Positions 33,629 through 39,171 of a DNA stretch of 64,000 bases are shown piece by piece. The stretch is from Escherichia coli (GTDB lineage Bacteria > Pseudomonadota > Gammaproteobacteria > Enterobacterales > Enterobacteriaceae). The translations under genes were made by a program, and so were the position numbers. The notes beneath the pieces were generated by a model. It did no database searches. It had not been told where the DNA came from and worked only from the letters and a program-made list of their open reading frames with translations. Location of the stretch: the NCBI RefSeq assembly GCF_022846255.1, contig NZ_AP025682.1; one strand, 5' to 3'. The first letter of the stretch is position 1. Each line of letters opens with the position of its first letter.

Positions 33629-33641
33629 TATTGTTCTGTAT

Positions 33642-33671
33642 GCCGGATAAGGTGTTTACACCGCATCCGGC
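33642..33671. repeat. REP element
   Basis: GCCGGATAAGGTGTTTACACCGCATCCGGC between convergent gatR and yegS. Confidence 0.5.
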
Positions 33672-33709
33672 ATTACGGATTCTCCCTGGTTCAACAGAGA
33701 ATAGTTTGA

Positions 33710-35498: not shown

Positions 35499-35585
35499 AA
35501 AAAATAAGCCCGTGTAAGGGAGATTACACAGGCTAAGGAGGTGGTTCCTGGTACAGCTAGCATTTTATGGGTTATGTTTTTCAGC
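35499..35585 (-). ncRNA. cyaR: CyaR (RyeE) Hfq-dependent sRNA
   Basis: Minus strand reads GCTGAAAAACATAACCCATAAAATGCTAGCTGTACCAGGAACCACCTCCTTAGCCTGTGTAATCTCCCTTACACGGGCTTATTTTTT, matching CyaR including the terminator hairpin and U-tract. Confidence 0.85.
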
Positions 35586-35669
35586 GAAACGGATGATAAC
35601 CTTAATAAATGCAGCTGTATGTGATCGGTTTCTAAGAATTTTCCATCCGGGAAAAATAATCGAAATTAA

Positions 35670-37031: not shown

Positions 37032-37133
37032 AATTCTCTCGTTCTGATGACAGGTCAGATCCGCTTCACCTGATGAAGCGGTTAGGGGAGTGCCCCCACT
37101 TTAAGGGCGGGCATTGTAGCGCAATCGGCGGGT

Positions 37134-37430
37134 TTAGCTCCAGTGTAAATGTCTGGAGGCGTCCTGGTTTTGGTTAAGGATACGAATGACGATAATTTCC
37201 TCTGGTGATTGCAGGAAATAAATTACGTGGCGTTCAAAAGGAAGAACAAAAATACCTTCGCCTAATTCAGGTCTGGGTGTACCTATATTATTGTTACTCA
37301 GAATCTGGAGAACGTCTGAAAGATGTTCCACATATCTGTCGGCTTGTGGTTCGCCGAAATGGTGATAGCTGTAATACCAGATGCCTTCTAAATCCTCATT
37401 GGCTTTTGGCATGAGTTTTATAGTACGCAC
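37134..37430 (-). CDS. ParE/RelE-superfamily toxin (type II TA)
   Basis: 98 aa; pattern A..DL..I..Y ... HVIYF ... IIVIRIL typical of ParE toxins; start 1 nt after the stop of the upstream RHH antitoxin gene. Confidence 0.75.
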   Translation of the reverse strand: MRTIKLMPKANEDLEGIWYYSYHHFGEPQADRYVEHLSDVLQILSNNNIGTPRPELGEGIFVLPFERHVIYFLQSPEEIIVIRILNQNQDASRHLHWS

Positions 37431-37431
37431 A

Positions 37432-37683
37432 TTATTTCCTTATCCCTGCTTTCACCTTCCGTAAAAACGCGTCCTTTTCCCACGGCTGAGCTTCACCACT
37501 ACTCAACCCTTCAGCGAGCATGTCACGTAACGCTTGCAGGCGAGACTCTGCTTGCTTTTCTCGAAGTAAGCGCAGCGACTCACGGATCACTTCGCTTTGG
37601 GTGCGATAGTCGCCGGATTCAATTAAGGACTCGATAAATTCACGCAACTCATCGCCGAGATCAACCGTCATCGTTCTGGCCAT
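37432..37683 (-). CDS. ParD-like (RHH/CopG, COG3609-type) antitoxin
   Basis: About 83 aa from MARTMTVDLGDELREFIESLIESGDYRTQSEVIRESLRLLREKQ (ribbon-helix-helix fold pattern); immediately upstream of the ParE-like gene. Confidence 0.75.
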   Translation of the reverse strand: MARTMTVDLGDELREFIESLIESGDYRTQSEVIRESLRLLREKQAESRLQALRDMLAEGLSSGEAQPWEKDAFLRKVKAGIRK

Positions 37684-37696
37684 TTTACGCCCGCCT

Positions 37697-37713
37697 GTAA
37701 GTAAAAATCTTAC
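37697..37713. promoter_or_regulatory. candidate autoregulatory operator palindrome of the TA promoter (GTAAG-N7-CTTAC)
   Basis: Inverted repeat 14 bp upstream of the antitoxin ATG; the operator assignment is inference. Confidence 0.3.
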
Positions 37714-37936
37714 ATCAGTGTATTTCATAAACCGGATAGCGTCACGAAAGTATTAGAAGATATTTTGGCATATGAACATGTTCAGGAAGATAAGTATGGG
37801 ATGGTAAACAAAGAAAGCACAACGAGTGCTTGTCAGTGCCCACTATTTTAATGGCGGAGGTTAATCTTAATTATCAATAACTAAGAGTTGTTTTGATATA
37901 AAGCCGGACGCCAACAACCCACGCCCGGCATCGTAA

Positions 37937-38269
37937 TTACGTATTGTCTTTTACCGTCTGACTTGTGCCATTGGCTTTAACGGAGGCAATTCCGGTTTCA
38001 CGAGATTGCGCGGTGGCGTACATCTGGCTGGAGCCGATAATTTGATGATTGGCGGCTTTCAGATTGAAATAGAATTTGCCGTTGCTTGCCGTTTTTTTCT
38101 CATAGCGTTCTTCTTGCGGGCTGTTGCTACGTACCGACGCGATGCCCTTTTCCGCAGAGGCTTTTGAGGTATACAGCTCGCTGGTGAGGATAGTCTCACC
38201 ATTGCCCGCTTTTAGCACAAACCGGAACTGATTATCACTGCTCTTACTGAGTTCAAACCAACCAGCCAT
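37937..38269 (-). CDS. yegP: YegP (UPF0339, tandem DUF1508 repeats)
   Basis: 110 aa from MAGWFELSKSSDNQFRFVLKAGNGETI; internal repeat (FVLKAGNGE.. / YFNLKAANHQ..). Confidence 0.85.
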   Translation of the reverse strand: MAGWFELSKSSDNQFRFVLKAGNGETILTSELYTSKASAEKGIASVRSNSPQEERYEKKTASNGKFYFNLKAANHQIIGSSQMYATAQSRETGIASVKANGTSQTVKDNT

Positions 38270-38448
38270 AATGACTCCTTGATTGAAATTGCGTATCGAA
38301 AACAGCATCTAAAGGTACTGTTTGCCAATTAAAGTATGAGCGATTTTCTGGTGCCTGCCAGGGCGGAGAGATAATGTCAGTTTGCTGACCATGCGTGGGA
38401 TAATGTTGCCGGATCTGGTCTGAAGGCCATCTCCGGCAGGTAAAAATG

Positions 38449-39171
38449 TTAAACGATGCGGCAGGCATCGGCTTCCCAGCGGTAACCGACGCCGTAAACG
38501 GCGCGGATAAATGACTGTTCGGCGTCGAGAGATTCCAGCTTGCGGCGCAGGTTTTTAATGTGGCTGTCGATGGTACGGTCAGTTACCACGCGGTAGTCGT
38601 CATAAAGATGGTTCAGCAACTGCTCGCGGGAGAACACTTTTCCTGGTTCATGAGAGAGCGTTTTCAGCAGACGAAATTCTGCAGGCGTCAGGTCAAGCAT
38701 TTTACCGCGCCATGAAGCCTGAAAACGACCTTCGTCGATAATCAACGGGCTTTCAGCATCCTGTTGCTGCAACTCACGCTGCGGTTTGCAACGGCGCAAA
38801 ATGGTTTTGACGCGCGCTACCACTTCCCGTGGGCTGTACGGTTTGCAGATGTAGTCATCTGCGCCAATCTCCAGCCCGAGCAGGCGGTCGATCTCTTCGA
38901 TTTTTGCTGTCACCATCACGATCGGAATGTCAGAAAAACGACGAATCTCCCGACACAACGTCAGGCCATCGGTGCCAGGGAGCATCAGATCCAACAGGAT
39001 CAGATCCGGTGGTGTCTGGCGCACATATGGCAGTACCTGATCGCCGTGGCTGATAAGCGTCGGCGCATAGCTCGCAGCACGCAGATAATCAATGAGTAAC
39101 TGTCCCAGCTTCGGTTCATCTTCCACGATCAAAATACGCGGTGTGTTTTCGTCGATTGGTAACTCGGTCAT
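38449..39171 (-). CDS. baeR: OmpR-family response regulator BaeR
   Basis: 240 aa; receiver domain (ILIVEDEPK ... [10 protein letters not shown]) plus winged-helix C-terminus; overlaps baeS. Confidence 0.95.

Follow-up and report, generated by a model that had tools for sequence, protein, structure and literature searches.

The closest described counterpart of the gene considered here is yegP of Escherichia coli K-12, whose product has a solved structure (PDB 2K8E). The yegP gene studied lies in a 64,000-nt stretch of another E. coli genome (contig NZ_AP025682.1, RefSeq assembly GCF_022846255.1); the whole stretch is called the window, and all coordinates refer to it. The window carries the same gene as K-12 in the same baeR-yegP-yegQ position, with the same promoter and terminator stem, and it differs from K-12 in having Ala37 (no phosphosite) and a 780-bp ParDE segment instead of about 21 bp. 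yegP is already on record as an annotated gene, as are its repeat architecture, solved structure and RpoS dependence. Its own promoter, together with the published RpoS dependence, points to a monocistronic gene of the RpoS regulon rather than a gene controlled by BaeSR. A sequence-only reading of the window had called the function of YegP unknown, in agreement with papers up to 2026, which still call the protein uncharacterized (PMC13373217).

DUF1508, the domain of which YegP is made, is among the larger families that have solved structures but a blank function, and it recurs in immune and stress operons (Menshen, Bub, CapK/CapS). The single-domain members HVO_2922 of Haloferax (6Q2Z), NMB1088 of Neisseria (3BID) and Atu0232 of Agrobacterium (2K7I) are homodimers, whereas YegP is such a dimer in one chain; the NCBIfam model for HVO_2922 scored YegP at 56.5 bits, below its cut-off of 90. 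The tandem module is shared with proteins in which it is fused to an immune or stress effector: the N-terminus of Menshen NsnA, the DUF1508-ubiquitin-like (Ubl) proteins of Bub systems, and a HEPN fusion found here (P0253). In NsnA the pair occupies the sensor position and has been compared to the sPC4 and Whirly single-strand binders (PMC12065111), and in the Bub ubiquitin-like proteins, where it is also N-terminal, DUF1508-Ubl was monomeric by size-exclusion chromatography with multi-angle light scattering. YegP homologs also follow the CapK/CapS transcriptional switch, which single-stranded DNA activates, at 57 loci (PMC13373217). These contexts suggest a sensing or targeting role for the tandem module. 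Unlike the fusions, E. coli YegP lacks an effector domain; its gene keeps a fixed place in the core genome and is not accompanied by any conserved partner gene, and no defense partner was conserved beside yegP across the 80 loci compared below. A likeness in topology of the intrinsic DUF1508 dimer to sPC4, Whirly and Pur-alpha has been published (PMC12065111), both being small dimers of beta-sheet and helix.

Identity and two-repeat architecture of YegP

The gene and its two repeat units were located as follows:

37937..38269, minus strand: yegP coding sequence, 110 codons plus TAA
38275..38280, minus strand: Shine-Dalgarno sequence AAGGAG, read from the sequence and unchanged in K-12 and in strain TCM3e1
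38123..38260, minus strand: DUF1508 unit 1, residues 4-49 (AlphaFold model E4-9, E15-20, E26-29, H36-49; Pfam stretch 11-57)
37970..38104, minus strand: DUF1508 unit 2, residues 56-100 (AlphaFold model E56-60, E66-71, E77-80, H87-100; second Pfam stretch)

That this gene is yegP, with two DUF1508 units, is practically certain from its translation, the double match to PF07411, the identity to 2K8E, the RefSeq label 'yegP: YegP family protein' and the mostly synonymous substitutions. The predicted protein was identical to PDB 2K8E ('UPF0339 protein yegP') at 109 of 110 residues and 66% identical to Shewanella SO_3888 (PDB 2K49). By sequence and by its position between baeR and yegQ, the gene is orthologous to E. 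coli yegP, the name that the sequence-only reading had also used. There were seven nucleotide differences from K-12, six of them synonymous and one changing residue 37. Compared with the E. albertii, Citrobacter and Kluyvera orthologs, synonymous codon changes exceeded non-synonymous ones 2-3 fold, and 2-6 fold when K-12 is counted in, as expected of a real gene under purifying selection. YegP is a 12-kDa, mildly basic protein (pI 9.4).

The start codon is the ATG at 38269, 5 nt after the Shine-Dalgarno sequence. A longer open reading frame of 123 amino acids starting at 38308 was rejected because it has no ribosome-binding site and because the RefSeq genomes and the PDB construct use the 110-residue start. 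A plus-strand open reading frame at 38006..38167 (53 amino acids) was taken as spurious and antisense to yegP; similar antisense artifacts appeared in the crude open reading frame calls at 15 of the compared loci.

The Pfam DUF1508 model (PF07411) matched YegP in two stretches with 153.1 bits (cut-off 22, E 1.7e-45). The two halves of the protein aligned with 19 of 45 residues identical (42%) and an E-value of 1e-11, which places the internal repeat far beyond chance. This is the tandem architecture proposed from the letters alone, and the motifs quoted for it, FVLKAGNGE and YFNLKAANHQ, stand at residues 17-25 and 67-76. The structural check suggested at that time had already been answered by 2K8E and 2K49: YegP is a rigid, symmetric pseudo-dimer of two beta-beta-beta-alpha units, as solved in 2K8E and reproduced by the AlphaFold model (mean predicted local distance difference test 91.7; template-modeling score of 0.95 on superposition with the solved structure). 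The model has an extra strand, E106-109, after unit 2. In the family alignment, equivalent positions in both repeats were invariant or nearly so (Y33/Y84, S30/S81 and N23/N74), and K36 was basic throughout.

No fold relative with a functional annotation was found with the YegP model, the matches in the BFVD viral search were uncharacterized DUF1508 proteins only, and no catalytic family matched YegP in the Pfam and NCBIfam scans.

The single amino-acid difference from K-12 falls on a reported modification site, T37 of YegP being listed as a phosphorylation site (PMC8055822):

38159..38161, minus strand: codon 37, GCC (Ala), which is ACC (Thr) in K-12; the sole amino-acid difference from K-12

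Residue 37 was variable across the DUF1508 family in the homolog alignment, and the Ala37 and Thr37 alleles were each present on at least 1000 contigs. The window allele is a common one, the same as UniProt YEGP_SHIFL of Shigella flexneri. The K-12 Thr37 phosphosite is lineage-specific. Since Thr37 is not conserved, it would be an unlikely candidate for a general regulatory switch.

Promoter, terminator and RpoS-dependent expression

Two signals bound the predicted yegP transcript:

38333..38361, minus strand: yegP promoter CTGGCA-17-CATACT, followed by TTTAA (pattern match and published listing)
37895..37929, minus strand: intrinsic yegP terminator, stem-loop 37929..37903 (GCCGGGCG...CGTCCGGC) and then TTTATATC

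The promoter pattern had a single match in the window and none in 100 shuffled sequences, and both hexamers were conserved in K-12 and TCM3e1. It is identical to the entry for the baeR>yegP spacer in a genomic systematic evolution of ligands by exponential enrichment (SELEX) study (Shimada et al., PMC3946193). That screen used the RpoD holoenzyme, and the promoter motif alone is no proof of sigma-S use. The sequence nevertheless fits sigma-S, with a compatible -10 element (CATACT), an A/T-rich stretch downstream of it and a weak -35 element. Published expression data agree: yegP was among the top 100 RpoS-dependent stationary-phase genes of strain EDL933, with a wild type to rpoS ratio of 185 (PMC2907692), its expression in O157 Sakai rose at the growth transition (PMC2241611), and it was a hub gene raised under several stresses (PMC9501238). 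From these lines of evidence, yegP very probably has its own promoter and is under RpoS control.

The terminator RNA folded with -18.4 kcal/mol (z -1.83), and its inner stem was also recovered in the terminator scan. K-12 has an identical stem, followed there by GCTTTACC.

The location of yegP suggests another arrangement, in which the gene would belong to the BaeSR envelope-stress and efflux unit, either on a joint transcript with mdtABCD-baeSR or under the control of BaeR, with a role in efflux or envelope repair. yegP shares its strand with baeR and sits 179 nt downstream of it; as the hairpins in between have no U-tracts, some read-through is possible. Set against this are the published promoter of yegP itself, the identification of RpoS rather than BaeR as the reported regulator, and the lack of a signal peptide or membrane segment in the window translation of YegP. 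The BaeR-box pattern TCTNCANAA had no match in 38270..38448, a weak test, since the consensus used is unverified. The distribution of neighboring genes bears on the same question.

Gene neighborhoods of yegP across species

A scan with one genome per species yielded 80 loci from gamma- and beta-proteobacteria, with orthologs 63-94% identical, and the neighbors at these loci were clustered using crude open reading frame calls and an all-against-all blastp comparison. The neighbors of yegP were conserved only within genera. Linkage to baeS, baeR, yegQ and RND genes was limited to Escherichia, Citrobacter and Kluyvera plus a single metagenome-assembled genome. In Acinetobacter, genes for YjdM/PhnA, AHSA1-like and DUF488 proteins were upstream, and in Pseudomonas the neighbors encoded DJ-1/PfpI, an RHH protein, DUF4917/SIR2-like proteins and a methyltransferase. 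No partner gene occurred beside yegP across genera at the 80 loci, and YegP therefore probably works alone or with unlinked partners.

The restricted baeSR-yegP linkage further lowers the probability of a BaeSR unit, even with a plasmid copy of yegP in Pseudoalteromonas directly behind an RND efflux operon counted in its favor, and we regard membership in such a unit as highly improbable. The sequence-only reading had implied a tie to BaeSR by proposing expression profiling under envelope stress. That tie did not hold up given the gene's own promoter, its RpoS dependence and the confinement of the linkage to enteric loci. The reading had correctly named baeR and the ParDE cassette as the neighbors and had given no strand for yegP, which is on the minus strand; yegP is functionally separate from both the BaeSR system and the ParDE cassette.

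Two plasmid copies have neighborhoods of their own. The yegP copy on the Marinobacter plasmid pD15-8W (1767..6679 of that locus) has genes for a WYL-domain regulator, which is divergent, for a Y-family DNA polymerase and for a 3'-5' exonuclease on its flanks, a neighborhood that looks to be of a DNA-damage type. The Pseudoalteromonas plasmid copy is the one mentioned above, directly 3' of an RND efflux operon. The two exonucleases beside plasmid yegP copies had no detectable similarity to each other, and none of the plasmid-copy neighbors recurred among the 80 chromosomal loci.

Distribution and domain contexts of the DUF1508 family

HMMER, run exhaustively over 1.84 billion representatives (E ≤ 1e-3), recovered a DUF1508 family of 3802 clusters, in which the largest proteins contained up to nine matched stretches. 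Several members combined DUF1508 with another domain. P0253 is a YegP-HEPN fusion whose residues 1-106 are 54% identical to YegP and whose C-terminus is a RiboL-PSP HEPN domain. Pfam placed an N-terminal XRE-type HTH before DUF1508 in P0201 and joined a NuiA nuclease-inhibitor domain to it in P0225.

A DUF1508-like segment was also seen in a tryptophanyl-tRNA synthetase model: positions 358-405 of NCBIfam NF008923 (TrpRS PRK12284) resemble one DUF1508 unit, with an E-value of 2.9e-6 to YegP residues 9-56. The match is a hint that this TrpRS family bears an extra C-terminal domain that binds RNA or has a regulatory role. In giant proteins such as P0121 (1476 amino acids), numerous DUF1508 pairs are strung together, with D-D-Y-L-x-C linkers recurring between them. 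P0121 itself lacks an N-terminal signal peptide and carries a hydrophobic segment close to its C-terminus as well as an unrelated C-terminal domain.

With DUF1508 pairs present in Menshen NsnA, in the Bub ubiquitin-like proteins, in the HEPN fusion and downstream of CapK/CapS, and with a toxin-antitoxin cassette adjoining yegP in the window, E. coli YegP might itself be an anti-phage immune or abortive-infection component. The distribution of the gene makes this very unlikely. A 1.5-kb query across the yegP locus was matched in 5423 of the 5426 complete E. coli genomes, and yegP is a core E. coli gene at a fixed locus, unlike mobile defense genes. It is present with or without ParDE, and YegP has no PADLOC match, effector domain or partner. 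Close homologs were also rare in phage, occurring in 9 of 50,697 phage records. On the same count a phage origin of yegP was rejected, despite a full-length DUF1508 family in PHROGs.

Proposed function of YegP

The gene, its signals, its fold, its place in the core genome and its independence of both neighbors were shown here or are on record; the steps beyond these are inferred. In stationary phase or under stress, yegP is transcribed from CTGGCA-17-CATACT mainly by RNA polymerase with RpoS; the message has a strong ribosome-binding site and ends at the intrinsic terminator. The pseudo-dimer would then serve as a non-enzymatic binding module that, in non-growing or stressed E. coli, most likely holds a macromolecular ligand by means of conserved lysines and the S-x-x-Y loop conserved in each unit; our first guess for this ligand is single-stranded nucleic acid. 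In other bacteria, the same module appears to do the sensing or targeting for immune or stress effectors to which it is fused. As a whole, with the ligand guess included, this explanation of an RpoS-driven, stand-alone gene for a binding module is tentative, and we would put it at somewhat under an even chance.

Its parts differ in strength. The lack of a catalytic signature, the symmetric conserved positions and the recurrence of the module as a non-effector domain together make it reasonably probable that YegP is a binding module and not an enzyme. The nature of the ligand is far more doubtful. Single-stranded nucleic acid is the lead candidate because many of the partner contexts (HEPN, HTH, NuiA, TrpRS, Menshen, CapK/CapS and WYL) have to do with nucleic acids, and it may be bound by YegP, though we put this well below an even chance. 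No nucleic acid binding data for YegP were found in the searched literature.

Several results weigh against the proposed function. The PC4, Whirly and Pur-alpha likeness was not reproduced, no significant structural match to these proteins being recovered for YegP. Stand-alone homologs had net charges between -3 and +11 and pI values between 5.3 and 10.1, so that a basic surface is not constant in the family. A proprotein-convertase P-domain (P_proprotein, above the cut-off) was fused to DUF1508 in P0186, and some multi-repeat members had weak, sub-threshold matches to PKD-like and CarboxypepD_reg domains; such extracellular-type domains speak for a protein or scaffold module of a general kind. 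The DNA-damage neighbors of the Marinobacter plasmid were considered as a general theme of yegP and rejected, since WYL, Y-family polymerase and exonuclease genes were found at none of the 80 chromosomal loci. Finally, a PADLOC scan of YegP gave no match at E ≤ 1. The variable charge, the extracellular-type domains in the arrays and the unreproduced PC4/Whirly likeness are what leave the single-stranded ligand step weak.

A second kind of ligand was also considered. YegP may bind one or more partner proteins, as a small stationary-phase adaptor, inhibitor or scaffold, and the DUF1508 pair in fusions and arrays would then be a stable spacer or an oligomerization unit. The giant arrays such as P0121 argue for scaffold use of the module. 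On the other side, no partner gene is conserved beside yegP across genera, the DUF1508-Ubl proteins were monomeric in the published measurements, and the HEPN, HTH, NuiA, Menshen and CapK/CapS contexts all concern nucleic acids. We consider protein binding a possibility of less than even probability, and an adaptor or scaffold nearly as likely as a binder of single-stranded nucleic acid.

A more specific form of the binding-module explanation can also be put forward. The pseudo-dimer might be dedicated to sensing nucleic acid that is single-stranded or arises from damage, coating or chaperoning it as stand-alone YegP in RpoS-active, non-growing cells and acting as the trigger domain of immune or stress effectors where it is part of a fusion or an operon (HEPN, Menshen NsnA, Bub Ubl and CapK/CapS). 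This is speculative and improbable as it stands; if true, a family of 3800 clusters with structures solved as early as 2007-2008 would gain a biochemical function.

The ParDE segment and other features of the locus

The window itself adds two observations to what is on record for yegP, the lack of conservation of Thr37 and a ParDE segment whose landing site coincides exactly with the end of the yegP terminator stem, the gene remaining intact. The gene order is baeS-baeR-yegP-(parDE)-yegQ-CyaR, in agreement with K-12, and the neighboring features are:

38449..39171, minus strand: baeR, upstream neighbor of yegP
37432..37728, minus strand: ParD, downstream of yegP
37134..37430, minus strand: ParE, downstream of yegP
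37123..37902: ParDE-specific segment, 780 bp, from alignment with K-12 and TCM3e1

The segment replaces about 21 bp found between yegP and yegQ in K-12, its first base follows directly after the yegP terminator stem, and the coding sequence, ribosome-binding site and promoter of yegP are unaffected by it. The full query including the cassette was matched in 1843 of the 5426 genomes; the others, K-12 among them, matched as two pieces without it. yegP thus occurs with or without the ParDE cassette, and there is no obligate co-occurrence. The segment supplies a better U-tract to the yegP terminator than K-12 has (TTTATATC compared to GCTTTACC).

ParDE modules are normally autoregulated. This counts against a coupling of yegP to the cassette, for example through shared transcription or toxin regulation, which the positions of the genes might otherwise suggest: parD and parE are immediately downstream and co-directional with the strongly RpoS-induced yegP, so transcription reading on into the toxin-antitoxin pair in stationary phase is conceivable, and the cassette provides the U-tract of the terminator. 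However, a stable terminator hairpin separates yegP from parDE, the cassette is missing beside yegP in about two thirds of E. coli genomes, and its presence or absence makes essentially no difference to the yegP coding sequence. Coupling of the two is barely credible.

A direct repeat, weak and imperfect (79% over 14 nt), was found at 37089..37102 and 37835..37848, within a wider motif CCxCGCCxTTAAA..GTGGG..CAC. The ParDE segment has one copy just within its yegP-side end, and the conserved yegQ-side spacer has the other; the repeat could be the trace of an insertion or recombination site, or chance. On the other side of yegP, in the spacer right after the baeR stop codon (about 38420..38448), K-12 has 11 extra nucleotides and several substitutions compared to the window and TCM3e1.

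Two RNA matches were found farther along the window:

35502..35587, minus strand: CyaR/RyeE small RNA gene (Rfam RF00112, 100.7 bits, E 6.7e-20), downstream of yegQ/trhP in the K-12 position
33641..33676, plus strand: naRNA4-like match beside yegS (Rfam, sub-threshold, 36.1 bits with a gathering cut-off of 59.5)

The naRNA4-like match near yegS may be a REP-type repeat element.
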